Virus record (IMG/VR): IMGVR_UViG_3300017707_000475
Location: 1 to 49,710 of that record
DNA from: a virus
Lineage: Duplodnaviria; Caudoviricetes
Strand: one strand, 5' to 3'
Length of the DNA stretch: 49,710 bases
In this document: positions 5,824-46,471 of the stretch, piece after piece
Layout: each line of letters begins with the position of its first letter
Numbering within the stretch: the first letter of the stretch is position 1
Notes under the pieces: generated by a model
Database searches by the model: none
Told to the model about the DNA's origin: nothing
What the model saw: only the letters and a program-made list of their open reading frames with translations
Made by a program: the position numbers and the translations under genes

Positions 5824-5852
5824 TTGACTTGCCGACCTGAGTCGGCTATCCT
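5824..5852 (+). promoter_or_regulatory. Sigma-70-type promoter with palindromic operator in the spacer
   Basis: TTGACT-17bp-TATCCT; spacer contains GCCGACCTGAGTCGGC. Confidence 0.8.
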
Positions 5853-17455: not shown

Positions 17456-18570
17456 CCATCCCTGACTTCTCTCCTCACGCGGTCCAGTCGGACAAGATGT
17501 TCTACATCCTCGACGCGATCGAGGCAGACGACGTCACGCTCGTCCGTCGCACACCTGCCGGGGATGAGGCCTTCACCGAGTTCACCTCATGGCGACTCCC
17601 GACGGGTCAGGTGCTCCTCGCCTTTCCGGAACACTTCAGGCTCGCCACCAAGGGCAACCTCGTCGCCCGTGCCGAGGATCAGGAGGAGATCGTCAACCTC
17701 GTCCTCTACGATCGCCTCCGACCTCACTATGACCGAGGGACAGCGATGCCAACAGGCGAGAAGGGCGTGTTCTGCTTCCTTGACTCACAGCCGATCCATG
17801 ATCCGAGAGACGAGTGGAGGTGCGACACCACGGCCTACGGACCGCTCAAGTACCTAGCCCCCGGCGAGGAGCGTCGAGTCCTCCTCTCCGATCTCGCACA
17901 GATCAAGACCTACGAGCCAGTGCTCTCGGTCAATGGAGTGGCACACCTCGTCTATCTCCAACGCGAGGACGACGAGGAGGCGAGAGACTATGTGGTCAAT
18001 GCAGAGCCTGTTCCTTTCTGTGCTGTGACGCTCTCTGAGATGCTGAAGCTCGTGTATGAGTGGGCAATCGTCGCCGAGCCCCCCTTCTCCAGCCCTGACC
18101 CCATCGCACAGGACGCGAGGGACTTCCTCGCAGCACTCAGGTTCCAGCCATCCATCGTGGCGAACCAGACGGAGATGCAGGTCGCCCGGTACATCCGAGG
18201 CCACGAGGACGCACGTCGCCGACCCTCCAATCCTCAGGACAACTCAGACGAGCTTCGCCTGTTCCTCAAGCGCAGGGTCGCCCACGGCTCCCTCGCCGGG
18301 GCATTGTCCCTGTACCCGGGATCAGGAGACATCGCTCAGGCTGTGGAGATTGACCTCGCAACCATCGAGAGCGACTACGCCTCGACGCTGTTCTACTTCG
18401 GGGTCGACCCTCAGGGACACGCCTTCGCCCGTGCTGAGGAAGGCATCGCAGCCATTGACCCAGAGCGTCAGATCGGTGGTCAGGCCTTCATGCGCCTCAA
18501 GGTCGCAGCCCTCCAGCAGAAGCTTGAGATCGCGACCCTCCTGCGAGACAACCCCTCTGCCGACATCTGA
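17452..18570 (+). CDS. Hypothetical protein
   Basis: ATGA overlap (MTIPDFSPH...); 372 aa. Confidence 0.7.
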   Translation: MTIPDFSPHAVQSDKMFYILDAIEADDVTLVRRTPAGDEAFTEFTSWRLPTGQVLLAFPEHFRLATKGNLVARAEDQEEIVNLVLYDRLRPHYDRGTAMPTGEKGVFCFLDSQPIHDPRDEWRCDTTAYGPLKYLAPGEERRVLLSDLAQIKTYEPVLSVNGVAHLVYLQREDDEEARDYVVNAEPVPFCAVTLSEMLKLVYEWAIVAEPPFSSPDPIAQDARDFLAALRFQPSIVANQTEMQVARYIRGHEDARRRPSNPQDNSDELRLFLKRRVAHGSLAGALSLYPGSGDIAQAVEIDLATIESDYASTLFYFGVDPQGHAFARAEEGIAAIDPERQIGGQAFMRLKVAALQQKLEIATLLRDNPSADI

Positions 18571-18589
18571 CGGCACTACACTCGGTCCG

Positions 18590-19642
18590 ATGCGGATCGC
18601 TGTCTACACGATTGCCCTGAACGAGGAGCAGTTCGTCAAGCGATGGGCAGACTCGGCTCAGGAGGCCGACCTCCTGCTGATTGCCGACACCGGGTCAACA
18701 GACGGGACCGTCTCCATCGCCCGATCCCTCGGGATCGAGGTCGCTCGGATCGGAGTCGCCCCGTGGAGGTTCGATGATGCTCGCAATGCGTCGCTCGCCC
18801 TGCTCCCGAGCTACATCGACCTGTGCATCGCCCTCGACATGGACGAGGTCCTCGTCCCCGGTTGGAGAGCCCATCTCGAGGCCATTTCCCCGGCAACGAC
18901 CCGACCGAGGTACAGGTATGTCTGGTCATGGCAGGCAGACGGATCGACAGGCCTGACCTACGGAGGCGACAAGATACATCGCCGGGCTGGCTACCGATGG
19001 CGACATCCGGTGCATGAGACCCTGACCCCAGTCCTGCCCGAGGTGCAGGAGTGGATCGGGCTCGAGATACACCACCACCCGGATCACACCAAGTCTCGGG
19101 GGCAGTATTTCCCCCTGCTCGATCTCGCCCGTCGAGAGGCTCCACAGGACGACAGGACAGCGTTCTATTACGCCCGAGAGTTGTTCTACCACGGGCGACA
19201 TCCTGAGGCCATTGAGGAGTTCCAGAGGTTCCTCGCCCTGCCGACTGCGACGTGGGCTCCTGAACGGGCAGCAGCCATGAGGTACATCGCCAAGATGGGA
19301 CACGATCCGCATCGGTGGTTCACTCTGGCGACGTTGGAGAGCCCTGATCGGCGTGAACCGTGGGTCGACCTCGCCCAGTACCACCACAACCAACGAGACT
19401 GGGAGGCCTGTCTGATGACAGCCAACCGGGCTCTCGCAATCCGAGAGCGACCGATGGAGTACCTCTGCGAGCCAGAGGCGTGGGGAGCGAGACCGCACGA
19501 CCTCGCCTCGATTGCGCTCTGGCATCTCGGTCGCCACCCAGAGGCTCTCGAGGCCTGTGAGACAGCCATCGCCCACGACCCCGGGGATGGTCGACTCAGG
19601 AGCAACCGGGAGTTCTTTCTTCTCGCCCTCAATCAGGAGTAG
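18590..19642 (+). CDS. GT2-family glycosyltransferase with TPR repeats
   Basis: IALNEE...DTGSTDGT...RFDDARN...LDMDE...VHE motifs, then helical TPR-like repeats. Confidence 0.9.
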   Translation: MRIAVYTIALNEEQFVKRWADSAQEADLLLIADTGSTDGTVSIARSLGIEVARIGVAPWRFDDARNASLALLPSYIDLCIALDMDEVLVPGWRAHLEAISPATTRPRYRYVWSWQADGSTGLTYGGDKIHRRAGYRWRHPVHETLTPVLPEVQEWIGLEIHHHPDHTKSRGQYFPLLDLARREAPQDDRTAFYYARELFYHGRHPEAIEEFQRFLALPTATWAPERAAAMRYIAKMGHDPHRWFTLATLESPDRREPWVDLAQYHHNQRDWEACLMTANRALAIRERPMEYLCEPEAWGARPHDLASIALWHLGRHPEALEACETAIAHDPGDGRLRSNREFFLLALNQE

Positions 19643-33685: not shown

Positions 33686-34056
33686 CAGACACGCCCGACC
33701 GGGAGCCCACGCAGAGGACATTCCTCTGGACAGGGCTCCGAACCAAGGTCTCCGAGACCAAGTGGATGAACACCGGGATGCGAGCCCTCAATGTCTCGTA
33801 CAACGACGGGACACACTCGGTCGCCTTCATCACCCACGATGGCAAGGATCGACGCCAGACGAACATCTGCGTCCATCAGTCCACCGAGATCACCATCGAC
33901 AGCGATGACGAGTTCGCAGCGACCATCCGTCTGCGAGCATCAGACGGAACTCCAGTCGCTGTCAACCTGTTCGGCATCACGCTCGAGCAGGTCGCAGATG
34001 CCATCGCATCAGCCATCGCCCAGAAGCACGAGCAGGCACAGGAGGCCTCAGCATGA
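33682..34056 (+). CDS. Hypothetical protein
   Basis: AAGGA RBS; ATGA overlaps. Confidence 0.7.
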   Translation: MTDTPDREPTQRTFLWTGLRTKVSETKWMNTGMRALNVSYNDGTHSVAFITHDGKDRRQTNICVHQSTEITIDSDDEFAATIRLRASDGTPVAVNLFGITLEQVADAIASAIAQKHEQAQEASA

Positions 34057-36509
34057 CCAAGCCCACCTTCGGGTCTCTCTTCGCCGGGGTCGGAGGCATT
34101 GACCTCGGCTTCGAGGCTGCTGGATGGGAGGGGAAGTTTCAGGTGGAGTGGGATGCCCATTGCCAACAGACCCTCGCGTACCATTGGCCTGATGTCCCCC
34201 GATGGGGCGACGTCTCAGATGTCTCGGGGGCAGAGTTGCCACCCGTCGACCTCATCACATTCGGGTCCCCCTGTCAGGACCTCAGCACCGCCGGGAAGCG
34301 AGCAGGCCTCATCGAGGGCTCCCGGTCCAACCTTTTCTTCCAAGCCACACGAATCATCAAGGAGATGCGAGATGCAACAGGAAACACTTTTCCCCGATGG
34401 GCTCTCTGGGAGAATGTTCCCGGTGCCTTCTCATCTAATCAAGGAGCCGACTTCGGGGCGGTCCTCGACGAAATGGCAGACCTCGGGGCTGTGGCTGTCG
34501 AGTGGCATTGCCTCGATGCACAGTTCTTCGGAGTCCCCCAACGCCGACGGAGGGTATTTGTCCTCGCTTGCTTCGATACTGGTATCCGCAAGCGAGGTCG
34601 ACAGCAAGTATTACCTGTCCCCGAAGGCCGCCGAGGGGATTCTGCGACGCGCCGACAGGCGAGGCAAGACTCTGCCCGAGCCTCTCAAGATCGCTCTGGA
34701 GGAACTGGCATCCAAGGCTTCCACGCCGACGACCGAGCAGCCGACCGAGGATGGGACAGCGACGAGACAGGCCTAGTCGGCTGTCTCGCAGCGACCGATT
34801 ACAAGGGCATCCGCAACCAGACCTTCGATGAGAACAAGGTCATCCTCGAGTTCGCCCCTGAGGAGGCGGTCATCCCTTTCGCTGAGGGGACATTCGGGAC
34901 CTACAAGGAGGGCGTCGCAACCCTCCGCGCACATGAGGGGACGGCAGGTGGTGGATCGGAGACGCTTCTCGTGATGCCCGATCCGCTCGCCTTTCAGCCG
35001 GGGCAGGTGCTCAGGCATGACCAGAACCTCTCCCCGATTGTCCCGACCCTGCGAGCACAGGGCAAGAGTGGGGACAACGAGCCCCACATCCTCGTCCCTG
35101 AGGACGTCGCTGTCTATGTGAAAGGCCGACGCGCTCACTCAGTCGATGACTACGAGACATGGGATGAGCAGGAGGTCGCACCGACGCTCAACTCTGCCGA
35201 CAACCGGACAGAGAGCAGGTCGACGGTCCTGATCCTCGATGGCACTCGTGTCGGCGAGGTGCGCGTGTACGAGGAGCCGATCCAGACGCTCATCAGTCGG
35301 ATGGGGACGGGTGGAAACAATGTCCCCATGATTGTGGTGGAGGAGCCAGAGCCAATTCTCCCGGTGCTGATGCGCCAGAGAGAGGGCAAGGCAGGAGGAG
35401 GCAAGGGTCCGCTCCTGAGCACCGACCTCTCCCCGTCGCTCGTGGCCTCCAACGAACTCGTCCTGTTCGCCCCGAGAGATGAGCCCATCTACTCCTTCGA
35501 CACCCAGTTCGGCTCCAATGCCTCGGTCATGGAGGACATCTCGCCAACCCTCAAGGCCACGCAGACAGCACCGTCCATCGCAATGGTGGAACCTGATCCA
35601 GTCCTCGCATGGGAGATCGGCTTCGGCTACAACTCTCGGGTCCGAGAGGACCTCGCCCCGACCCTGAGGGCAGGGCAGGATGGAGCGCAGATTGCGATCC
35701 CGGTGGAGCAGGTCGCTGAGTGGTGGGATGGATCACAGGTCGTCCCGACCCTGACCACGAACAGTTCCATGCAGCGGATGCCAGACAAGGGACAACTCTT
35801 CGCAGTCGTCCAGTCGACCGATGATCCGAGCCACATCGCCATCCCGATACAGGACGGGCGTGAGATCGAGAAGCACCAGAACGGCCTCGGCATCGGAGAG
35901 CCCGGCGATCCTGCGTACACGCTGGACAGGACAGGGGGACAGGCGGTCGCGCAGGAGGTGTACGCCTTCCCGTCCACCTTCTCCAATAGCACAGTCAGCG
36001 AGACAGCGTTCCCCACTCTCACGGTCGGAAGCTCAGTCGGCATCTCCTCGCCCCCAGCAGTCGCCTACAGCGAGGACGTCGTGCTCCCGATCTCACACGC
36101 AGCCCTCCGAGGAGGAGGAGTCGCCCTCACCCCATCACCGGATGGGCAGGGAGGCGAGTCCATCCGTCACCCCGGCTTCGGCCTCGGGGAGGATGGAGAC
36201 CCGATGTTCAGCCTCACAACCACACCCCCGGCAGTCGCCACCACAGAGAAAGACACACCAATGACAGACACGCCCCAGCCGAAACTCGTCGTGAGACGAC
36301 TCACCCCCATCGAGTGCGAACGCCTCATGGGATGGCCTGACAACCACACCCTCTACCGAGCCGATGGCAAGGAGAACAGCGACTCCACGCGGTACAAGAT
36401 GTGCGGCAATGGGGTCGCCTCGCCTGTCGCTGAGTGGATCGCGCACCACATCCTCAAGGCGCAGGAGAAGATGGACTCGGATCAGAGCGAGAGCGAGGTC
36501 GCAGAGTGA
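34053..36509 (+). CDS. C5 cytosine DNA methyltransferase with greatly expanded variable region
   Basis: Motifs I FAGVGG, IV GSPCQD, VI ENV, VIII QRRRRVF, IX RRLTPIECERLMG and X GNGV. Confidence 0.92.
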   Translation: MTKPTFGSLFAGVGGIDLGFEAAGWEGKFQVEWDAHCQQTLAYHWPDVPRWGDVSDVSGAELPPVDLITFGSPCQDLSTAGKRAGLIEGSRSNLFFQATRIIKEMRDATGNTFPRWALWENVPGAFSSNQGADFGAVLDEMADLGAVAVEWHCLDAQFFGVPQRRRRVFVLACFDTGIRKRGRQQVLPVPEGRRGDSATRRQARQDSARASQDRSGGTGIQGFHADDRAADRGWDSDETGLVGCLAATDYKGIRNQTFDENKVILEFAPEEAVIPFAEGTFGTYKEGVATLRAHEGTAGGGSETLLVMPDPLAFQPGQVLRHDQNLSPIVPTLRAQGKSGDNEPHILVPEDVAVYVKGRRAHSVDDYETWDEQEVAPTLNSADNRTESRSTVLILDGTRVGEVRVYEEPIQTLISRMGTGGNNVPMIVVEEPEPILPVLMRQREGKAGGGKGPLLSTDLSPSLVASNELVLFAPRDEPIYSFDTQFGSNASVMEDISPTLKATQTAPSIAMVEPDPVLAWEIGFGYNSRVREDLAPTLRAGQDGAQIAIPVEQVAEWWDGSQVVPTLTTNSSMQRMPDKGQLFAVVQSTDDPSHIAIPIQDGREIEKHQNGLGIGEPGDPAYTLDRTGGQAVAQEVYAFPSTFSNSTVSETAFPTLTVGSSVGISSPPAVAYSEDVVLPISHAALRGGGVALTPSPDGQGGESIRHPGFGLGEDGDPMFSLTTTPPAVATTEKDTPMTDTPQPKLVVRRLTPIECERLMGWPDNHTLYRADGKENSDSTRYKMCGNGVASPVAEWIAHHILKAQEKMDSDQSESEVAE
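34372..34776 (+). CDS. Nested alternative-frame ORF resembling the M.EcoHK31I beta subunit
   Basis: AAGGAG 7 nt before the ATG; DGLSGRMFP..SSTKWQTSG..LASIL..KYYLSPKAAEGILRRADRRGKTLPEPL. Confidence 0.7.
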   Translation: MQQETLFPDGLSGRMFPVPSHLIKEPTSGRSSTKWQTSGLWLSSGIASMHSSSESPNADGGYLSSLASILVSASEVDSKYYLSPKAAEGILRRADRRGKTLPEPLKIALEELASKASTPTTEQPTEDGTATRQA

Positions 36510-37090
36510 CCGCCCCACGCGAACTAGACAGTCTGATGACCGGGCTCCTCGACAATGCCATCGACATCTGGCGACGCGACAAGGTCGTGGCGACCTGCTC
36601 GTGGGCTCTCGGCGACAAGGCATCGGCCTTCGCCCAGCCCTTCGATGAGGACGGATGGAACATCAGCATCGAGACCCGTGCCGGGCTCCATGCCCTCGTC
36701 GCAGCCTGCGTCAACGCCAAGGTCATCGGACGAATCGACGAGACATGGACCAAGGCCATGTCCACAGATGAGGAGCCCCCGGTGCATGGCGAGCTTCAGG
36801 AGATTGCCGACATCGACCCCGAGGTCAAGACAGCCCTGTGCGTACAGGCATACGACCTGATCTCCGGAAGGTCCTACCTGCACATGGCGCACCTCGACCT
36901 CTTCGATGATGGGTCCGACCATTGGGTCAGGACATACGCAGACGACCCAGAGGGACGCATGGTGGGGCAGTCGCATCTCACAGCCCGAGCGATCCCGATC
37001 CTGACGGGAGGCGAGGATGTCTCACCTGACGTCGTGGAGCAGTTCCTCAACGCCCTGCACTGGACGATGGTCGTCGCGGAGTTCGCATGA
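36506..37090 (+). CDS. Hypothetical protein
   Basis: GTGA overlap with the methyltransferase stop. Confidence 0.7.
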   Translation: MTAPRELDSLMTGLLDNAIDIWRRDKVVATCSWALGDKASAFAQPFDEDGWNISIETRAGLHALVAACVNAKVIGRIDETWTKAMSTDEEPPVHGELQEIADIDPEVKTALCVQAYDLISGRSYLHMAHLDLFDDGSDHWVRTYADDPEGRMVGQSHLTARAIPILTGGEDVSPDVVEQFLNALHWTMVVAEFA

Positions 37091-37173
37091 TGTTCCTACT
37101 CAAGACCATCGGCATCTACACGGGCATCGCTCTCGTCGTCTACCTGCTCTGGAGGTGGCTGTATGAAGTGTGA
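37087..37173 (+). CDS. Possible 28-aa single-TM peptide
   Basis: MMFLLKTIGIYTGIALVVYLLWRWLYEV; GGAG RBS; fills the gap. Confidence 0.4.
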   Translation: MMFLLKTIGIYTGIALVVYLLWRWLYEV

Positions 37174-37693
37174 CCTCGCCGAGCAGATCGCGCACAAGGC
37201 GTTCTCCGGGGACAGGAGACACGACAGCCTCGCCAACCTCATGCAGGCTGGAGGCCAACTCGAGGCGCACTACCTGAGGATGTGTCCATGCTTCGGGTTC
37301 CCACCCGTGGACCGACTCCCGGTGCCAGAGCCGATCCGAGACACCAACCGAGAGCCCAAGGCAGAGCGACCCATCACTCATGGGGCGAGTGCCTATCGGA
37401 ACAAGAAGTGCCGATGCGACGTCTGCACGGAGGCCAACCGTCTCCAGAAGCTCAAGTACCGACCCAAGTCTGACTCCGTCAACATTCGCCTCGATGCCAC
37501 GCCCCTCATCAGCCTGCTGACCCGGCATGGTCGCCTCGAGGCCGTGGACAACGGACGGATCGGACAATGGCGCAAGAACGGCATCGACCTGTACGCCGCG
37601 GATCGGTGGTGCATCCGTCTCGGGTATCATCCCATCGAGGTCTGGGGACAGGCCTTCTACCTCGGAGCGACAGAGGAGGCAGTCGTTGGGTGA
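37163..37693 (+). CDS. Zinc-finger / HTH-type DNA-binding protein
   Basis: HGASAYRNKKCRCDVC motif; C-terminal ADRWCIRLGYHPIEVWG. Confidence 0.65.
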   Translation: MKCDLAEQIAHKAFSGDRRHDSLANLMQAGGQLEAHYLRMCPCFGFPPVDRLPVPEPIRDTNREPKAERPITHGASAYRNKKCRCDVCTEANRLQKLKYRPKSDSVNIRLDATPLISLLTRHGRLEAVDNGRIGQWRKNGIDLYAADRWCIRLGYHPIEVWGQAFYLGATEEAVVG

Positions 37694-37783
37694 CTTCATC
37701 GTCCAGATCATCAACATGGTCGTCCTCGTCTGGCTCGGCTGGTTCCTCGGTGGCGCAGGTGGGTATCGGCGAGATCGCTGACC

Positions 37784-38560
37784 ATGCCCCTCGGTAGCAG
37801 GACGCTCCTGACCCAGAACTCCGAACTCAGACCGGACGGCATCTGGAACTACGCCATCCCGGCATGGTATGTCACCCTCCCAGACCGTGGTCGCGTGATG
37901 ACCTGCCCCAACGCCGGGGCCTGTGCTCAGGTGTGCTACGCCCGAAACGGCACATACCGCTTCTCCAATGTCCTCGAGGCGCACACGCGCAACCTCACTC
38001 GGTACCTTGATGATCCCGGGCAATGGCTCTCCGATCTCCACGGGGAACTCGCCCAGCCCAAGTTCCGACCGACGGGCATCGCCCGGGCTGTCCCTGCTGG
38101 GCTCGACCCTGTCCTCCAGAGGTGGGCAGATCGAGGAGGTGTCGCGATCCGCATCCACGACTCGGGGGACTTCTTCTCGGAGGCATACCTGAGGGACTGG
38201 CTGCTGACTGCGACCCTGTTCAGCGACGTGCTGTTCTACGCCTACACCAAGGAGGTCTCCCTCCTCAAGGGCATCCCAGCCGAGGACATCCCCGGCAACT
38301 TCCGATACCTGTTCTCCACGGGTGGCCTCGAGGATCACCTCATTGACCCCGATGTGGATCGTCACGCCGATGTCTTTCCGGACGATGACGCTCTCCGATT
38401 GGCAGGGTACGAGAGCCAAGAGGCCTCGGACCTCCTTGCGATCCTGTTGAGGACCACTCGGATCGGCATCCCGGCGAACAACATTCCCCACTTCAACAAG
38501 AAGCTCGCAGGACGCAGGTTCTCCGAGATGGGTCGGCGTGGATTGACGTCGCGTGATTGA
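37784..38560 (+). CDS. GP88-like (radical-SAM-related) protein
   Basis: TCPNAGACAQVCYA, RIHDSGDFFS and FYAYTK motifs. Confidence 0.75.
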   Translation: MPLGSRTLLTQNSELRPDGIWNYAIPAWYVTLPDRGRVMTCPNAGACAQVCYARNGTYRFSNVLEAHTRNLTRYLDDPGQWLSDLHGELAQPKFRPTGIARAVPAGLDPVLQRWADRGGVAIRIHDSGDFFSEAYLRDWLLTATLFSDVLFYAYTKEVSLLKGIPAEDIPGNFRYLFSTGGLEDHLIDPDVDRHADVFPDDDALRLAGYESQEASDLLAILLRTTRIGIPANNIPHFNKKLAGRRFSEMGRRGLTSRD

Positions 38561-38573
38561 CCCGACCTGACAC

Positions 38574-38602
38574 TTGTCGGCATCACCTCTGACTGCTACC
38601 AT
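38574..38602 (+). promoter_or_regulatory. Promoter for the modification/packaging operon
   Basis: TTGTCG-17bp-TACCAT; a CCGAC-N9-GTCGG variant overlaps the -35. Confidence 0.55.
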
Positions 38603-38625
38603 CGCAGCAGGACAGAGAGAGACAG

Positions 38626-38883
38626 ATGACGACCACCCCTCCCCCTCCCCGATCATCCCGGGAACAGAAGCTCGAGGCACTCGAGCGAGAGATCATCAAC
38701 GGTCAGCGAGCCCTCATGGAGCGCAACCGTCTCGTCGTGGAACTGGTAGCGGCAGGGTACACGCAGGCCGACATCACTCGGCGACTCAATCGCCAGAGGG
38801 CAGCCCTATCGGCTGACCCCCTGACCCCAGATGCGATCCATGTGATCCTCAAGAGAGCCACCCAGAAGGAGCAGACCAAGTGA
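38626..38883 (+). CDS. Small HTH-like regulator (paralog B)
   Basis: RNRLVVELVAAGYTQADITRRLN...TPDAI. Confidence 0.7.
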   Translation: MTTTPPPPRSSREQKLEALEREIINGQRALMERNRLVVELVAAGYTQADITRRLNRQRAALSADPLTPDAIHVILKRATQKEQTK

Positions 38884-39509
38884 AAGTCATACAGCAGGAG
38901 TTCGACCCGTCCATCCCGGTGTCCAGCCTCGAGGAGCACCCCGACAACCCGCGTCGGGGCGATGCCAAGGCGGTCAACGAGAGCATCACGGCCAATGGGT
39001 TCTACGGCGCAATCCTCGTCCAGAGATCGACAGGACGGGTGCTGGCAGGCCACACCCGACTCAAGGCAGCCAAGAAGTCCGGGGCAACCTCAGTCCCCGG
39101 CATCTGGCTCGATGTGGACGACACGCAGGCCAAGCGCATCCTTCTCGCCGACAACCGGACGAGCGACCTCGCGTACTATGACGACGATGCGCTCTTCTCC
39201 GTGCTCGGGTCCATCCTCGAGGAGGACGACACCCTCAAGGGAACAGGCTATGACGACGCCACCTACAAGCTTCTGCTCAACACGGAGGTCGAGACGGACA
39301 AGCCATTCGTCGGCAATGTCCAGCAGGTCCACACCCCCGGCGATCGCGAGCCAATCTACGAGTCGCACGACATCCGATCCATCATCCTGCCGTATGTGGG
39401 CGAGGTGTACGACGAGGTCGTCACCAACCTGACCACCCTGCGAGCCGAGTTCGATGTCAAGACCAACGCCGACGTCGTCCGTCACCTGCTCCAGAAGGCC
39501 GTCATCTAG
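38880..39509 (+). CDS. ParB/Srx N-terminal domain protein
   Basis: HPDNPRRGD..SITANGF..VLAGHTRLKAA..LADNRTSDLA. Confidence 0.88.
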   Translation: MKVIQQEFDPSIPVSSLEEHPDNPRRGDAKAVNESITANGFYGAILVQRSTGRVLAGHTRLKAAKKSGATSVPGIWLDVDDTQAKRILLADNRTSDLAYYDDDALFSVLGSILEEDDTLKGTGYDDATYKLLLNTEVETDKPFVGNVQQVHTPGDREPIYESHDIRSIILPYVGEVYDEVVTNLTTLRAEFDVKTNADVVRHLLQKAVI

Positions 39510-40453
39510 TGCAGCGCATTGTCAGGAAACGACGAGAGCCCCTCGTCCCCTGCACATCCGTCGAGCCCGGGGACCGCTCAGGGACCATCCAGTCCTGTGG
39601 AGCCATGATCCCCTACACACCTCGGAAGCCATGCCCAGTCTGTGGTCGGCGACAGATCAGGGCGACCGCCTCTGTGCCGGGACCCGACGCAGTCATCATC
39701 AGCGATACGGCCTGCCTCGTGGATGAGGACCTCGATGAGATTGTCGCAATCCAGATCGTGAGCGAGCAGAGCCTCGCGTCAGCCATCGGTCAGGAACTCA
39801 GGCACATCGGGCAATGGGAGAGGGTCGCCAACGAGATCAGGATGTCAGGCATCGGGGTCGAGCACCACACCTTCGGCTACGCAGCCCCGGCACCGCTCCG
39901 ATCCCGGTGGGCGTGTACGCGGTGCAGGTTCGACCGCAAGTACCCAGAGGTCACCGACCTCATCTACGACTTCGTCTACCAAGCCGAGAGGCTGTTCCGC
40001 GAGTATGCCCCCGACGCGTATCGGCACTCAGCCGAGGCCGTCCTGTCGACCGTCCCTGAGGCATGGCGCATCAAGGGAACCCCGTGGACATCTGGCGTCA
40101 TCAACAATACGGCAGCCCTGCCCTACCACAAGGACTCCGGAAACATCCGGGGCTCGTGGTCGGCGATGATTGCAGCCCGGCACGGGATCGACGGGGGACT
40201 GCTGTACCTCGCCGACTACGACGTCTACCTCGCTGTCCCCCACGGGTCCATCTCCATCTTCGATGGGCAGTCCGTCCTTCACGGGGTCACGCCCTTCATC
40301 GCCACCGACCGCGACGCATGGCGATACACGCTCGTCTGCTACGCCAAGAGTGGGATGAAGTCCTGCGCCCCGACCCCAGAGCAGGAGGCCGAGAGGGCTG
40401 CGCTCCGCACGACCGAGGCCGATCGGCGCAAGGCCGAACGCCTCAAGAAATGA
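39509..40453 (+). CDS. TET/JBP-family 2OG-Fe(II) dioxygenase
   Basis: WTSGVIN...YHKDSGN (HxD)...GG.L...FDGQSVLHGVTP...RYTLVCY; N-terminal Cys cluster. Confidence 0.85.
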   Translation: MQRIVRKRREPLVPCTSVEPGDRSGTIQSCGAMIPYTPRKPCPVCGRRQIRATASVPGPDAVIISDTACLVDEDLDEIVAIQIVSEQSLASAIGQELRHIGQWERVANEIRMSGIGVEHHTFGYAAPAPLRSRWACTRCRFDRKYPEVTDLIYDFVYQAERLFREYAPDAYRHSAEAVLSTVPEAWRIKGTPWTSGVINNTAALPYHKDSGNIRGSWSAMIAARHGIDGGLLYLADYDVYLAVPHGSISIFDGQSVLHGVTPFIATDRDAWRYTLVCYAKSGMKSCAPTPEQEAERAALRTTEADRRKAERLKK

Positions 40454-41547
40454 CCCTCCCGGCAGGGGCTGACCTGCGCCAACCCGAGCATCGCCGAGAG
40501 GTGTTCCTCCGGTTCTATGACTTCCACACCCAGTTCGGGACGCACCCGGGTCTCGTGTATCTCATCATCCCCGGGCTCCGTGAGAAGCTCGGATGGACAC
40601 AGGAGGAGACCCTCTGGTTCTCGCTCCTCAATGGATGCACACAGCACCCCATGACCTCGCTCCTGCTCATGCAGCAGGCTCCCTCGCTGGCTGAGGCGGA
40701 CAGGTTGGTCGCGTGGCTGGAGCACAACGTCGACCGCATCTCGGTGGACACGGATCGGCGATACCACAGGCGAGCCATCCCCAAGGCCATCGAGGGCTAC
40801 AGGCAGATGCTCGCCGGGGCGACAGCCACCGAGTTCTGGACACTCCGATCCGAGCAGGGATGGGAGTCGATCTGGACCGCTGCGACCTCGATCCCCACCT
40901 TCGGACGACTCTCCGCGTGGTCGTTCTGTGACTACCTCCTCTGCTCAGGCATCCCCGTGGAGCCGACCACGCTCCTGCTCGAGGACCGGGCTGGCTCTCG
41001 ATCTCATCGCAATGGCCTCGCCATCGTCATCGGACGGGACGACCTTGACTGGCACTCCAGCAACCCGAGCTTCTCAGGCAGGTACACCAAGGAGCAACTC
41101 GACATTCTCGCCGACTCAGGGGAGTCCCTCCTTGCCGAGGCGCGTGAGCGAGCCAGAGGACAGCGTCACGAGAGGTTCGTCAACCGTCTGACCCTCGAGT
41201 CTGCCCTCTGCACCTACAAGAGCTTCCACCGACCCAACAGGCGGTACCCCAATGTCTACGCCGACATGATGCACGACAGGCTCCTCGCCTTCGAGGCGAA
41301 ATGGGGGACAGGCCTGACCGACGTGTTCTGGGCTCTCCGATCCGAGCGCATCCCCGGCGACCTGCGCCTTGAGGACAACCCCGGCGACCCGGGCTGTGTC
41401 CCCCTGAAGCAGAACTGGTACCGAGAGACGGGACGACTCCCCATGATGTCCGGGATGTACGGCGACATGGCCTGCGAGTTCGATGACCTCGTCCACGCGG
41501 AGGCCTTCGGTCGATTCCGTGAGCCACGCAAGAGGAGCACGACATGA
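40450..41547 (+). CDS. Amino acid:DNA transferase (aGPT-Pplase2 / AADT family)
   Basis: DTDRRY, FGRLSAWSF.DYL, SRSHRNGL and LESALCTYK..RRYP motifs; gene context. Confidence 0.8.
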   Translation: MTLPAGADLRQPEHRREVFLRFYDFHTQFGTHPGLVYLIIPGLREKLGWTQEETLWFSLLNGCTQHPMTSLLLMQQAPSLAEADRLVAWLEHNVDRISVDTDRRYHRRAIPKAIEGYRQMLAGATATEFWTLRSEQGWESIWTAATSIPTFGRLSAWSFCDYLLCSGIPVEPTTLLLEDRAGSRSHRNGLAIVIGRDDLDWHSSNPSFSGRYTKEQLDILADSGESLLAEARERARGQRHERFVNRLTLESALCTYKSFHRPNRRYPNVYADMMHDRLLAFEAKWGTGLTDVFWALRSERIPGDLRLEDNPGDPGCVPLKQNWYRETGRLPMMSGMYGDMACEFDDLVHAEAFGRFREPRKRSTT

Positions 41548-42452
41548 CCCCGACCGTCGACTGGGATCACATCCTGACCGCTCTGACCCCGTGGGAGGAC
41601 AGGGGAGGCCGTTGGTACAAGAGGGAGGACTACTGCGCTCCTCTCGGCTACGGCAAGGTCAACGGAGCCAAGTTTCGCCAGTGCCTCTACCTGCTCGAGC
41701 GAGCAGCAGATCATGGACTCCCCGGCATCACGACCGGGGCATCCGTCCTCTCGCCCCAGTTGCCCATGTCGGCGGTCATCGCTGAGTACGTCGGCCTGCC
41801 CCTTCGCATCTACATCGGGGGGACGACCCTCGACAAGGCCACCCGGCATCGGAATGTCCAGATTGCCCTCGAGCATGGCGCAGAGTTCCGGACCCTCAAG
41901 GTCGGCTACAACCCAGCCCTCCAGTCAGCCGTCACCAAGGACGTCGCCGAGACAGGGCGATACCACCTGAGGTACGGCATCTCTCCCGATCCGAGCGACG
42001 AGGACATCATCGAGTTCCACCGGGTCGGAGCAGCGCAGGTCCAGAACATCCCTCAGAGCCTGCGTCACCTCGTCATCCCCTGCGGATCAGCGAACTCCAC
42101 CATCTCCATCCTGCTCGGCCTGTCCCTGTACCCTCACAATGTCGAGACCGTGACCCTCATTGGGATCGGACCCAACCGGGCTCGGCTCATCGCGGATCGC
42201 CTGACGCTGTTCGGGGAGCAGATTGGAGCGAGCCTGCCCGTCAGCACGGAGATCGAGATGCACGACCTCCACACCCCCGGCATCGTCACCTACGGACAGA
42301 AGGTCCGTCAGTCGCTGGACGGCATCACCTTTCACCCGACCTATGAAGCCAAGGTCGTCAACCACCTCCTCAGCAACCCGTCAATCGCCCCCGGCTTCGT
42401 GGACGGGGACGGCACGACAGGTCTGTGGATTATCGGATCGGAGCCCAAGTGA
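41544..42452 (+). CDS. PLP-dependent enzyme (fold type II), probable DNA-amino acid decarboxylase
   Basis: LTPWE..YKRED..NGAKFRQ, SVLSPQ, QVQNIP, PCGSANS and HPTYEAK motifs. Confidence 0.8.
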   Translation: MTPTVDWDHILTALTPWEDRGGRWYKREDYCAPLGYGKVNGAKFRQCLYLLERAADHGLPGITTGASVLSPQLPMSAVIAEYVGLPLRIYIGGTTLDKATRHRNVQIALEHGAEFRTLKVGYNPALQSAVTKDVAETGRYHLRYGISPDPSDEDIIEFHRVGAAQVQNIPQSLRHLVIPCGSANSTISILLGLSLYPHNVETVTLIGIGPNRARLIADRLTLFGEQIGASLPVSTEIEMHDLHTPGIVTYGQKVRQSLDGITFHPTYEAKVVNHLLSNPSIAPGFVDGDGTTGLWIIGSEPK

Positions 42453-42991
42453 TGCGAGTCATCTACCTCATCGGCGCACCGGGATCAGGAAAGTCGACTG
42501 CGCTCAAGCGAGCCCTCGAGATCAAGCACTGGGGCGACCCAGTCCAGAAGCTCGAGCCGATCCCCCATCTCGACTATGGGGCAGGGTGCATCCAACTCGG
42601 ACGGGTGCGCGAGACCGGGTTCTCAGGGACTGACGCTCTGGGCATGGCAATCAACCCACGGGCGATCGAGTTCGTGGAGAGCCAACCTGCGCCCATCATC
42701 GTGGGGGAGGGAGATCGCCTCGCCAACGCCGGGTTCCTGAGTGCGGCAGATCGGAGTGGAGTCCTGACGCTCATCTGGCTGGATGTCCCCCCTGAGGTCG
42801 CAAGACAGCGAGCCCGAGAGCGAGCCATCCATCTCGGCACCAAGGAGCAGACAGACTCGTGGTGGAAGGGTCGGTACACCAAGACCTCACGACTCGCAGG
42901 TGGCTGGCCTCACATCCGCATCGACGGGACAGCCCCGGCAGAGCACGTCGCGCAGAGCCTCGCAGACTACATACCTCACACCCGTTACTGA
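42452..42991 (+). CDS. P-loop kinase, probable hydroxymethyl-base DNA kinase
   Basis: Walker A GAPGSGKST; FSGTDALGM; EGDRLAN. Confidence 0.8.
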   Translation: MRVIYLIGAPGSGKSTALKRALEIKHWGDPVQKLEPIPHLDYGAGCIQLGRVRETGFSGTDALGMAINPRAIEFVESQPAPIIVGEGDRLANAGFLSAADRSGVLTLIWLDVPPEVARQRARERAIHLGTKEQTDSWWKGRYTKTSRLAGGWPHIRIDGTAPAEHVAQSLADYIPHTRY

Positions 42992-43008
42992 TAGCGTAAT
43001 CGGTCGAG

Positions 43009-43209
43009 ATGGGCAGACCGACCGAGTACGAGACACCACGGATACAAGTGTTGGTCCGCTTCGTCCCGGCAGACCTGCTCATCGTCAAGACGGAGGCGAG
43101 GCACTTAGGTATCAGCGTCAACCGTCTCATCGAGCGAGCCGTGCAGGACTGGATCATGCGTGAGGCTGGCGAGACACGGGAACCACAGACAATCGGAGAC
43201 ACGCCATGA
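43009..43209 (+). CDS. Ribbon-helix-helix DNA-binding protein
   Basis: MGRP..QVLVRF..EARHLGISVNRLIERAV. Confidence 0.65.
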   Translation: MGRPTEYETPRIQVLVRFVPADLLIVKTEARHLGISVNRLIERAVQDWIMREAGETREPQTIGDTP

Positions 43210-43922
43210 CCGCCAAGAAGGCAACCCCCAAGGCCACCAAGGAGGCTCCAGCCAAGGCTCCACGGAAGCCCAGAGCCCGACGTGAGGAGACGATCCGAGT
43301 GGTGGACCTCGCCAAGGCCACCAACCTCGCACTCGCCGGGGCGACCTACAAGCAGATCGCGACTGAGTTGGAGGTCGATGAGGAGACCGTTCGGTACCAC
43401 CTGCTCTCGGCTGAGGGTCAGCGAGCCCTGCGCTTCGCAGTCAACGACCTACAGGAGCGCACGGATCGGTTCCTTGCCTCTGCCCACTTGCAGGCCATCC
43501 GTCGTCTGGTCCGGGAGATGGAAGAAGCTCAGAAGCCGGGTGATCGCATCCGTGCAGCGCAGGCCATCACGATGCTGGCTGCCAAGCGCATCGAGATCAC
43601 AGGAGCCAATGGGAGCCCCATTGAGGTCGACACCACGATGGCGATGCTCCTCGATGAGCGCATCGCACGGATGAGGGAACGCTCCCGGGCTGTCATTGAC
43701 ACCACGGCAGTCATCGCACTTCCGGAACCTGAGCCGACCGATGAGGACGTCGTGGAGGCTGAGGTCATCCCTCTGGAGCCTGAGAGCCCTCCTGAGCCTG
43801 CTCCTGTGCCTGAGCCACCTGTGGAGGCCGTAGCCCCGGCACAGCCCCTGAGAGCCCCTGCTGGGCGCGTGAGACAGCCTGCTGGCCTCGCCCCGGGTCA
43901 AGGACTCCGAGCCAGACGATGA
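43206..43922 (+). CDS. terS: Terminase small subunit (probable)
   Basis: HTH AGATYKQIATELEV and EITGANGSPIEV motif; directly upstream of TerL. Confidence 0.7.
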   Translation: MTAKKATPKATKEAPAKAPRKPRARREETIRVVDLAKATNLALAGATYKQIATELEVDEETVRYHLLSAEGQRALRFAVNDLQERTDRFLASAHLQAIRRLVREMEEAQKPGDRIRAAQAITMLAAKRIEITGANGSPIEVDTTMAMLLDERIARMRERSRAVIDTTAVIALPEPEPTDEDVVEAEVIPLEPESPPEPAPVPEPPVEAVAPAQPLRAPAGRVRQPAGLAPGQGLRARR

Positions 43923-45328
43923 GCCAGACGACTGCCCGTGACTGGGATCGGATGAGTGATGCCGAGCGAGCCGTCCTGACAGGCGACATCGAGGACATCC
44001 GTGCAGGCCTCGATCCTGCCGGGCTCGAGCATCTGATGTACCTCTGGGAGTTCTGGCGACGCCCCAATCAGACACGCCCTGAGGGGCTCGGCTCCAAGTA
44101 CCGGGCGTGGATGCTCATCGCTGGACGAGGCTTCGGCAAGACAAGGGTCGGATCGGAGACGACTCGGCAGATGATTGAGGTCGAGCCTCGCATCGCCCTC
44201 GTCGGTCCGACCGCTGCCGATGTCCGAGATGTCATGGTCGAGGGGGAGTCGGGCATCCTGTCCGTGTTCCCTCCATCCCAGAGACCTGTGTATGAGCCAT
44301 CCAAGAGGCGAGTCACCTTTCACAATGGCGCAATGGCGACCCTGTTCTCGGCTGAGGAGCCCGACAGATTGCGCGGACCTCAGCACGGGTGGGCATGGAT
44401 CGACGAGCCTGCCTCAATGCCCAGAGGCGAGGACACCCTCTCCAACCTCCTCCTCGGTCTCCGTCTAGGCCGTGAGCCGTGGGCTCTCCTGACGGGTACG
44501 CCCAAGCCAGCCCGATGGCTGAGGGCTCTCTCCCAGCGACCCGACACCCTCGTGACCACCGGGTCGACCTACGACAACGTCGCCAACCTCGCCCCCGGCT
44601 TCATTGACGACGTCCTCGGACGCTATGAGGGGACACGCCTCGGGCGACAGGAGCTTCATGCTGAGTGGCTGGACGACGTGGAAGGAGCCCTGTGGACGGA
44701 GGTCATCCTCGATCGTGGTCGCTTGACATCGTTCGACATCGCCCAGCCGTGGCAGTCCCTCAACCGACACCTCGCAGATCGGGATCGCCCGGCAATCCTT
44801 GAGCGCAGACCGTGGAAGGTCATCGTGGCAGTCGACCCACCGGGAGAGACAGCCGAGTGCGGCATCGTCGTGGCCTGCGCCCCGGTACAGGGACGGGCAG
44901 GAGTCGACCACGCTGTCATCCTCGAGGACTGCTCCATGCCGGGGCGACCCGAGGAGTGGGGCGCACAGGTGGCCTCAGCAGCCAGACGCTGGAAGGCAGA
45001 GCGAGTCGTCGTGGAGTCCAACCAAGGAGGCGACATGGTGCGGGCAACGATCCACGCAGTCGACCCGATGCTCCGTGTGGAGAAGATCACTGCCCGTCTG
45101 AGCAAGGCTGCCCGAGCCGAGCCCGTGTCTGCCCTCTATGAGCGAGGCCTTGTCCACCACTCTGGGTTCTTCCCCATGCTCGAGAGCCAGATGGTCTCAT
45201 GGGTCCCGGGGGAGGGCAAGTCCCCCGACCGTATGGACGCTCTGGTTCACGCGGTCGCCTCGCTCCTCATCGCCCAGCCTGTCGTGCCGGGCTCCGTCGT
45301 CTCACCCACATCAAGGAGAATCCCATGA
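43919..45328 (+). CDS. terL: Terminase large subunit
   Basis: AGRGFGKTR, RLRGPQH..AWIDE, GRQEL, AVDP, ESNQGG and SPDRMDA motifs. Confidence 0.93.
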   Translation: MSQTTARDWDRMSDAERAVLTGDIEDIRAGLDPAGLEHLMYLWEFWRRPNQTRPEGLGSKYRAWMLIAGRGFGKTRVGSETTRQMIEVEPRIALVGPTAADVRDVMVEGESGILSVFPPSQRPVYEPSKRRVTFHNGAMATLFSAEEPDRLRGPQHGWAWIDEPASMPRGEDTLSNLLLGLRLGREPWALLTGTPKPARWLRALSQRPDTLVTTGSTYDNVANLAPGFIDDVLGRYEGTRLGRQELHAEWLDDVEGALWTEVILDRGRLTSFDIAQPWQSLNRHLADRDRPAILERRPWKVIVAVDPPGETAECGIVVACAPVQGRAGVDHAVILEDCSMPGRPEEWGAQVASAARRWKAERVVVESNQGGDMVRATIHAVDPMLRVEKITARLSKAARAEPVSALYERGLVHHSGFFPMLESQMVSWVPGEGKSPDRMDALVHAVASLLIAQPVVPGSVVSPTSRRIP

Positions 45329-45615
45329 CCCTGCCCATCACCATCATCCTCGTCGCCCTATCGACCTACAGGCTGACCCGACTCATCACCGCGGATCGGA
45401 TCACGCAGAAGCTCAGGGAGGCGGTCATCGCCCGAGGCGAGATGGTCGGCTACCTTGCGACGTGCGATTGGTGTCTCTCGATCTGGCTCGCACCGATCCC
45501 CACCGGGTTGGCTGTCATGTTCCCCGGCAATCGCCTGATCCTCATCGGCCTGCTCGCCCTGTCGGCCTCTGCCCTGACTGGCCTGCTCGCCTCGCTAGAG
45601 GGGAAGCTCGGATGA
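45325..45615 (+). CDS. DUF1360-like membrane protein
   Basis: YRLTRLITADRIT..YLATCDWCLSIW; AAGGAG RBS. Confidence 0.75.
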   Translation: MTLPITIILVALSTYRLTRLITADRITQKLREAVIARGEMVGYLATCDWCLSIWLAPIPTGLAVMFPGNRLILIGLLALSASALTGLLASLEGKLG

Positions 45616-45622
45616 CATACCG

Positions 45623-45644
45623 TCCGACTAGAGTCGGTCACAAT
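45623..45644 (+). promoter_or_regulatory. Operator copy plus -10-like box
   Basis: CCGACTAGAGTCGG followed by CACAAT; the -35 is weak. Confidence 0.6.
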
Positions 45645-45658
45645 CCCAAGGAGAGACC

Positions 45659-46471
45659 ATGACCTATCCCCTCCGCGTCCTGTCCCTCGGGGCTGGGGTG
45701 CAATCAACGACCCTGCTGCTGATGATGCTTCACGATGAGATACCTCGTGCGGATCATGTCGTGTTCGCCGACACCGGATGGGAGCCCAAGAAGGTCTACG
45801 ACCATCTGGACTATCTCAGAGGCCTCATGGACGATGCCGGGATGCCGTTCCACATGGTCAGCGAGGGCAACCTTCGCGAGGACTTCCTGACCTCTGGACG
45901 TCGCTACGCCTCGATGCCCCTGTACGTCGCCGATGAGGTCGGTAAGAAGGGCATGGTCCGTCGCCAATGCACGACCGAGTACAAACTCAAGCCCCTCATG
46001 GTGAAACAGAGGGAACTCGCAGGCCTCGCCAAGGGACAGCGATGCAAGGAGCATCGCATCACCACAGTCATCGGCATCTCATACGATGAGGTCCAGAGGA
46101 TGAAGGACCCGAAGTTCTCATGGATCGAGCATGAGTATCCATTGGTCGACCGACGGATGAGCCGACAGGACTGCCTTGACTGGTGCGAGGAGCACGGGTA
46201 CGCCTTGCCTCCCCGATCTGCCTGCGTGGGCTGTCCCTTCAAGGCGACCTCCGAATGGCGAGCCCTCAAGGACGAGCCCGGCGAGTGGGAGGACGCGGTG
46301 GACTTCGACAACCAACTCCGATCCAATCCAGTCGTCATCTCCCGGTACCGTGGAACGCCCTACCTCCATGCCTCTCTCAAGCCCCTGTCAGAGGTCGACC
46401 TTCGCACGGATGAGGAGCGAGGCATCTTCACCCTGTTCGATCAGGAGTGTGAAGGGATGTGTGGGTTGTAG
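45659..46471 (+). CDS. PAPS-reductase-like PP-loop protein with Cys motifs
   Basis: SLGAGVQST, FADTGWE, RQCT..YK, SACVGCPF and C-terminal ECEGMCGL. Confidence 0.8.
   Translation: MTYPLRVLSLGAGVQSTTLLLMMLHDEIPRADHVVFADTGWEPKKVYDHLDYLRGLMDDAGMPFHMVSEGNLREDFLTSGRRYASMPLYVADEVGKKGMVRRQCTTEYKLKPLMVKQRELAGLAKGQRCKEHRITTVIGISYDEVQRMKDPKFSWIEHEYPLVDRRMSRQDCLDWCEEHGYALPPRSACVGCPFKATSEWRALKDEPGEWEDAVDFDNQLRSNPVVISRYRGTPYLHASLKPLSEVDLRTDEERGIFTLFDQECEGMCGL

Follow-up and report, generated by a model that had tools for sequence, protein, structure and literature searches.

Can a handful of small phage genes build an amino-acid-derived base directly on finished DNA? This question is raised by a gene cluster at positions 38880..42991 of the virus genome IMGVR_UViG_3300017707_000475, whose 49,710 nucleotides were analyzed as a whole and are called the window below. 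The window stems from a tailed phage, and its virion genes, an Rpf-like (resuscitation-promoting factor-like) transglycosylase and the best cultured matches for two products of the cluster, the TET dioxygenase and the kinase, point to an actinobacterial host. We regard it as probable that the cluster directs post-replicative hypermodification of thymine by an amino-acid-derived group. By analogy with phage ViI, we lean towards the base of that phage, 5-(2-aminoethoxy)methyl-deoxyuridine (5-NeOmdU), as the exact product. The cluster consists of the following genes:

38880..39509, + strand: ParB-like protein with an N-terminal and a short C-terminal domain (PF02195, 26.8 bits; 30% to Zemanar gp1)
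39509..40453, + strand: TET/JBP 5-methylpyrimidine dioxygenase of the actinophage (Nigel gp2) type (PF12851, 47.9 bits)
40450..41547, + strand: amino acid:DNA transferase (AADT) of the ViI gp247 (serine) type (PF18724, 46.2 bits)
41544..42452, + strand: pyridoxal phosphate (PLP)-dependent enzyme of the ViI gp226 type, predicted decarboxylase (31% to ViI gp226)
42452..42991, + strand: P-loop kinase of family PF18751 (Nigel gp3 type), predicted 5-hydroxymethyluracil (5hmU)-DNA kinase (83.6 bits; ATG start)

All five open reading frames (ORFs) are intact, carry their catalytic residues and overlap by 1-4 nt (junctions TAGTG, ATGA, ATGA and TGATG). Two relatives retain these coupled genes at 71-80%. 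Thus, ORFs, overlaps and Pfam families confirmed the five translationally coupled genes of the original prediction, which had been made from the letters of the window alone. Its family assignments held for ParB, TET, AADT and kinase, all of which scored above their Pfam cut-offs (ParB_N 26.3, Tet_JBP 34.9, ADDT 26.2 and Ploopntkinase3 27 bits). The PLP enzyme remained under the PALP cut-off of 35 bits (28.5 bits), as does ViI gp226 itself (30.7 bits), but is homologous to gp226 over its full length. A sequence search against solved structures returned nothing useful for TET, AADT, the kinase or the neighboring GP88 protein.

In the proposed pathway host enzymes would copy the genome with normal nucleotides, since the searches, within their reach, revealed neither a polymerase nor a nucleotide-pool enzyme. 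Once activated by ParB, the Fe(II)/2-oxoglutarate dioxygenase would act like its sister subfamily and convert part of the thymines to 5hmU by hydroxylation, whereupon the kinase would add a phosphate to the 5hmU hydroxyl group. At the E250/C254 site of the AADT, whose residues are present, the phosphate would be displaced by the side-chain hydroxyl of serine, the substrate suggested by ViI gp247. Finally, by analogy with ViI gp226, decarboxylation of the free alpha-amino acid would fall to the PLP enzyme. The whole line would act on finished phage DNA.

The near-complete genome was also found to be devoid of a recognizable polymerase or thymidylate-synthase-like gene, as the original prediction had held. 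The sister genome G002 bridges the ends of the window (window end at L075:3284, window start at L075:3340); compared with it, the window lacks only about 55 bp of a full genome, a gap that falls within the portal gene. The Pfam profiles PF00303, PF00476 and PF00136 had no match in the whole genome, tblastn at E 0.1 found nothing with the thymidylate-synthase-like M6 gp58, its Montesquieu counterpart or the M6 and ViI polymerases, and none of the 47 other ORFs matched a replication or nucleotide-pool family of PHROGs. Since only about 55 bp are absent, the lack of such genes does not result from truncation. A highly divergent polymerase or thymidylate-synthase-like enzyme could escape these searches.

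The dioxygenase exhibits the catalytic set H207-x-D209, H258 and the 2-oxoglutarate arginine R272, invariant in 64 of 64 aligned homologues drawn from the best 120 of 176 matches. Its predicted structure (pLDDT 93, a score of the predicted local distance difference test) matched human TET2 (E 1.8e-12) and NgTET1 best. It belongs to the Nigel gp2 subfamily with the motif [TS]SG[IV]IN...HxDxxN (WTSGVIN...HxDxxN in the window), a subfamily which the clade D sequences of Burke 2021 could include. A helical extension of 28 residues follows the last conserved cysteine, C286. An N-terminal insert carries cysteines 15, 30, 42 and 45, which are invariant in the closest subclade and lacking in the aligned Nigel, Tonitrus and Lilmac1015 enzymes; judged by their pattern, they may form a zinc site. 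The equivalent of TET2 H1904 is K280, with Lys or Arg in 63 of the 64 homologues, basic like the Arg of assayed T enzymes.

ParB comprises 209 aa with the N-terminal domain, is devoid of the central DNA-binding domain and is coupled 5' of TET. By analogy, it is likely the activator of the dioxygenase. ParB-dependent oxidation of T to 5hmU on DNA by phage enzymes was demonstrated in vivo and in vitro by O'Toole et al. (PNAS 2026, PMC13229309, and its preprint; here and below, statements on published work refer to the available portions of papers and supplements), and these T-dioxygenases are linked to P-loop kinases and AADTs. Consequently, the earlier view that characterized phage TET pathways lead only to glycosylated 5-hydroxymethylcytosine had to be abandoned. 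The proposal that TET makes the hydroxymethyl handle directly on DNA gains support from genome context and from this work on the sister subfamily, and the interpretation as a whole is partly supported. Weak support came from a predicted ParB2:TET complex, which scored 0.53 (best control 0.20; contact agreement between runs at least 53%, pLDDT at least 83); of the solved pairs, 116 of 157 attain the mark applied, against 2 of 215 mismatched ones, and at scores up to 0.60 it is attained by 18 of the 157 solved pairs and both mismatches.

The subfamily was surveyed in 99 clusters (90% identity) obtained from TET searches, from which the L199 fragments, L001 and the record of the window itself were omitted. 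ParB lies 5' of TET in all 78 clusters with at least 700 bp of flank. Downstream of TET (59 clusters with at least 3.5 kb) we found a kinase in 27, an AADT-like gene in 22 (5 ViI-type, 17 other) and a PLP gene in 5; in other clusters TET is followed by TET-associated glycosyltransferases or FkbM-like methyltransferases. The TET of L155 is 88% identical to that of the window, yet its AADT belongs to a different clade. Therefore, the downstream cassette is modular. Of 84 TET clusters that extend at least 3.5 kb downstream, 10 hold the full five-gene set; in 5 of these the dioxygenase is of the T[IV]TVN type, that of the T-oxidizing group assayed by O'Toole, whose motif was read from the 25 ParB-associated constructs. 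A look-alike query for the assayed 5mYOX contigs gave 32 loci, none with a contig name matching the available portion of Dataset S11; they were excluded from the counts. At L201:2111-3985 a single ORF of 624 aa combines TET with a weak AADT match (23.3 bits, under the cut-off), possibly a natural TET-AADT fusion.

Among 74 dereplicated AADT loci, TET occurs in 60, a thymidylate-synthase-like gene in 5 and both in none; TET and the thymidylate-synthase-like gene thus seem to supply 5hmU in alternative ways. In Montesquieu, a cultured phage, the same combination of AADT and PLP enzyme goes with a thymidylate synthase/hydroxymethylase.

The product of 40450-41547 is indeed AADT-like, of the aGPT-PPlase2 kind, and contains the catalytic E250 and C254 (E-x3-C), Glu and Cys being essential in this family according to Lee 2022 (PMC8989533). 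It is 29.5% identical to ViI gp247 over 346 aa (E 2e-28; M6 gp51: E 0.46) and shares with it the motifs FGRLSAW and DTDxRY. In a quick tree, in which gp247 sits on a long branch, it groups with gp247 (56-row clade; Shimodaira-Hasegawa-like approximate likelihood ratio test, SH-aLRT, 99) apart from the M6, PaMx11 and PhiW-14 enzymes, and the alignment shows no counterpart of the glycine-binding W146 and K150 of PaMx11 gp46. By analogy, serine attached via its hydroxyl would be the substrate.

The PLP enzyme gave a corresponding result, with 31% identity to ViI gp226 over 363 columns (E 2.5e-44) and E 0.20 for M6 gp52. Its Schiff-base lysine K43 aligns with K36 of gp52 and with the lysine of gp226, and in the tree gp226 is nested within the PLP family of the window. 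Of 37 ViI-type AADTs, 23 have a PLP gene in their vicinity, compared with 0 of 16 other AADT-like rows (at least 2 kb on either side; 21 of 74 rows were dropped for short flanks, and the rows are related, not independent); of these other rows, 10 of 13 checked exceed the Pfam ADDT cut-off. The association fits the chemistry described by Lee (PMC8989533), in which O-linked serine keeps a free amine for the PLP enzyme and N-linked glycine offers none until isomerization by gp53. Since both AADT and PLP enzyme are of the ViI type, the glycine-type M6 enzymes matching at E 0.2 or worse, 5-NeOmdU is the likely product and not the aminoethyl base of M6. The aminoethyl-type base proposed originally is thus better replaced by the aminoethoxy base; a genome-wide search found no gp53 homologue. 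Elsewhere, at L157:4141-5226 and L089:6349-6807, the place of the PLP gene in related TET-AADT-kinase clusters is taken by a gene resembling Asp/Asn beta-hydroxylase or by a dual-specificity phosphatase. At the left end of phage Vincenzo (L074:1-3152) a ParB fused to a methyltransferase-like domain is followed by a gp226-type PLP gene and a kinase.

Among known systems, 5mYOX clade C1 (5mYOX176/ParB176) resembles the window in having ParB beside a TET/JBP enzyme with an extension after the last conserved Cys, a linked PF18751 kinase and PF18724 AADT, and post-replicative action on T, which for the window is predicted. The assayed 5mYOX enzymes carry T[IV]TVN...HxDxGD, whereas the window has WTSGVIN...HxDxxN, a short variable insert and the four-Cys N-terminal insert. 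The domains annotated by O'Toole include no PLP genes (0 supplement hits in a term search), and the available text reconstitutes no downstream step. The 5-NeOmdU pathway of ViI (kinases gp243/gp67, gp247, gp226; PMC8989533) shares the AADT and PLP subfamilies with their catalytic residues, but there 5-hydroxymethyl-deoxyuridine (5-hmdU) comes from the nucleotide pool, the phage possesses a polymerase of its own, the genes are dispersed and the kinase gp243 belongs to PF18747. The 5-aminoethyl-deoxyuridine (5-NedU) pathway of M6 (gp51-gp54) likewise clusters kinase, AADT and PLP enzyme, but differs by its glycine N-linkage and radical S-adenosylmethionine (SAM) isomerase; AADT and PLP enzyme of the window exhibit no significant pairwise similarity to gp51 and gp52.

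A thymidine hypermodification started by TET/JBP was already predicted by Lee 2022 (PMC8989533; Fig. 2, sequences 22-25), where TET_JBP replaces dUMP hydroxymethylase and feeds kinase and AADT. These contigs are predictions only, and they bear out the earlier remark that such hybrid neighborhoods had been drawn computationally. Mycobacterium B4 phages (Zemanar, Nigel), Gordonia phage CaiB (PMC9302106) and Rhodococcus phage Tonitrus (PMC11955845) resemble the window in ParB, the TET subfamily (31-37% identity), AADT and PF18751-type kinase 5' of terminase; the Zemanar, Nigel and Tonitrus clusters contain no PLP gene and that of Nigel no AADT. No reconstitution of the full chain, or of any TET-started amino-acid hypermodification, was found in the literature, the search of which left subscription journals mostly aside (further sources: PMC8256090, PMC11472151, PMC11804724); here, too, the original prediction was right. 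The design is in print; the activity of the full chain, of this dioxygenase subfamily and of this kinase family is predicted here.

Several observations weigh against the proposed pathway. The motif WTSGVIN...HxDxxN occurs in 0 of the 12 O'Toole supplements by term search, so that the assayed enzymes are not close relatives, and the dioxygenase shares 21-23% identity with look-alike enzymes of the T[IV]TVN type. N212 corresponds to the 5-methylcytosine (5mC)-binding N1387 of TET2; with N212 TET2-like and K280 T-enzyme-like, the active-site residues leave T versus 5mC unsettled. Moreover, 5mYOX176 oxidizes 5mC and T comparably in vitro, many assayed ParB pairs yielded less than 5% 5hmU, and no stable ParB:5mYOX complex was trapped (PMC13229309). 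The kinase belongs to PF18751 and thus lies outside the assayed Pfam families PF18748 (M6 gp54) and PF18747 (ViI gp243). It is common without TET (413 matching phage records, 95 for TET), stands alone 5' of terminase in phage Oline and, in the first 9 kb of Vincenzo, accompanies the PLP family without TET or AADT. Finally, the AADT is only 29% identical to gp247, which sits on its long branch, and substrates switch at such distance: M6 gp51 (glycine) and PhiW-14 gp109 (putrescine) are 27% identical.

This last point favors the same post-replicative line on T in which the AADT would attach a different nucleophile, such as threonine or some other amino acid linked by its side chain, yielding a base not yet described. 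As the motifs in common with gp247 and the position of gp226 inside the window's PLP family speak for serine, we consider this alternative possible but unlikely. The neighboring genes, some of which enter into further alternatives, are as follows:

34053..36509, + strand: C5 cytosine methyltransferase (C5-MTase) of 818 aa with a long insert (PF00145, 177 bits)
37784..38560, + strand: GP88-family protein (PF17338) with a radical-SAM-like predicted fold
38626..38883, + strand: 85-aa helix-turn-helix (HTH)-like protein (GTGA overlap with ParB; HTH matches weak, E 0.03-0.06)
43009-43209, + strand: downstream 66-aa protein (ORF coordinates)
43206-43922, + strand: HTH candidate for the terminase small subunit (genome annotation)
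43919-45328, + strand: large terminase (genome annotation)

Distinctly unlikely is a wholly on-DNA route to an undescribed base, primed by a dioxygenase that probably bears a zinc ribbon, in which either GP88 would remodel the adduct or 5mC from the C5-MTase would also be turned into aminoethoxymethyl-cytosine.

The kinase, after the identity of the amino acid, is the weakest assignment. With 83.6 bits for PF18751, an intact Walker A motif and 27% identity to the assayed PaMx11 gp49 (E 3e-6), it may work like a 5-hmdU DNA kinase despite its different family; the kinase step is predicted, PF18751 being absent from the kinase families assayed in Lee 2022. Alternatively, the line might be shorter, with the kinase or the PLP enzyme serving packaging or amino-acid metabolism and the DNA carrying 5hmU or undecarboxylated O-seryl-thymine. 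In favor of such a line, the kinase is TET-free in most of the 413 records, B4 mycobacteriophages possess ParB-TET-AADT-kinase without PLP (the PLP enzyme is matched by no more than 3 Mycobacterium records), and the PLP and kinase genes of Vincenzo have neither TET nor AADT nearby. It is improbable in view of the coupling and conservation of all five genes in two relatives, the kinase near 27 of 59 subfamily TET clusters, the PLP gene tracking the ViI-type AADT, and the separate terminase-small-subunit candidate in the window.

The main rival to thymine as substrate is 5mC provided by the C5-MTase 2.4 kb 5' of the operon, which the original prediction had omitted; the line would then hypermodify cytosine. 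HxDxxN as in TET2 and the in vitro oxidation of 5mC by 5mYOX176 (PMC13229309) agree with this, but only 3 of 37 subfamily clusters have a C5-MTase within 6 kb, and the gene is absent from the fragment G001 and from the whole sister genome G002, which keeps the operon. The 5mC-TET pathway of Burke 2021 is characterized by a conserved cognate C5-MTase beside TET; the window has such a gene, but G002 and 34 of the 37 clusters lack it. Since the gene is missing from the whole of G002, thymine remains the likely substrate; the AADT site of PaMx11, moreover, binds thymine O4. GGCC occurs 199 times in the window and is purged in G002 (0, 195 expected) and L003 (0, 82 expected), as expected of a stand-alone anti-restriction methylase, which the C5-MTase probably is, independent of the operon. 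We regard the cytosine route as very improbable. The insert of the C5-MTase spans about 570 aa with about 11 repeated TL-like motifs, which we take to be target-recognition domains; the enzyme is likely multispecific. Both GGCC and CCGG are tolerated in the window and purged in relatives devoid of the C5-MTase.

Least probable is GP88 as a sixth member, a divergent radical-SAM-like Fe-S protein remodeling the adduct as M6 gp53 does: it has an invariant C41-x5-C47-x3-C51, a wide fold search returned nothing but radical SAM enzymes among its 21 best rows (best Z 6.3, rmsd 4.3, 161 aligned; spore photoproduct lyase second, Z 6.2), and it stands directly 5' of ParB in 11 of 39 GP88 clusters, followed by TET or methyltransferase genes, but Z under 8 may reflect a common arrangement, Foldseek at E 0.001 and PF04055 gave no match, GP88 is near only 3 of 59 TET clusters, and an O-seryl adduct needs no isomerase (PMC8989533). 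GP88 is probably not required for the operon. As an M6 gp53 homologue it was rejected (probability 0.6%; Foldseek empty). The Pfam text for PF17338 assigns no known function, and no relevant paper was found by title.

How much of the thymine would be modified? T-containing restriction-type sites are purged from the window (CCWGG 0, 158 expected), and among the six-base palindromes that contain T and are expected 5 times or more, 15 of 28 occur once or never (7 of 20 in G002). This continued purging suggests that the modification is partial and context-limited, in line with the 35% ceiling of the assayed 5mYOX enzymes (PMC13229309). Thus, the modification is probably sequence-limited and not a blanket shield; it may protect particular sites or, in view of the link to terminase, play a part in packaging. 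Enrichment of TC/GA (1.48) was rejected as a mark of the modified context, as it is not specific (median 1.21 in 44 TET loci and 1.23 in 20 TET-free GP88 loci); differences in TA, TG and TT are small, and the TET and GP88 sets differ in kinship.

The unit extends beyond what was originally drawn. At its 5' side the 85-aa gene is translationally coupled to ParB and kept at 83-84% in L003 and L004; on the 3' side the 66-aa gene and the adjoining terminase genes follow. A sigma-70 scan of 36000-46000 gave 0 promoter-like sites. Between the kinase and the 66-aa gene, at 42983-42997, CGTTACTGATAGCGT is kept in L003 and L004 and may act on the terminase genes as operator or promoter. A recurring promoter-like motif (TTGCCGAC or similar, then GAGTCGGCTAT) was observed 5' of small genes at 5841, 33212 and 46503. 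After terminase a PAPS (3'-phosphoadenosine 5'-phosphosulfate)-reductase-like gene (phrog_424) is located at 45659-46471, with two copies in L003 and none in L004. A glycosyltransferase with tetratricopeptide repeats (18056-19642) lies among tail genes, a position which suggests a virion protein rather than DNA as its target.

Since the concept is already in print, specialists will not be surprised by it. If the proposed pathway is right, five small genes would suffice to write a cationic amino-ether base on ordinary DNA with no change of nucleotide pools and no phage polymerase. Two halves that have been demonstrated separately, ParB-activated T oxidation on the one hand and tailoring by kinase, AADT and PLP enzyme on the other, would thereby become a single testable unit. 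Moreover, the dioxygenase and PF18751 kinase families, which many cultured actinophages carry at their left end and which records often label as queuine tRNA-ribosyltransferase, small terminase or adenylate kinase, would gain a function.

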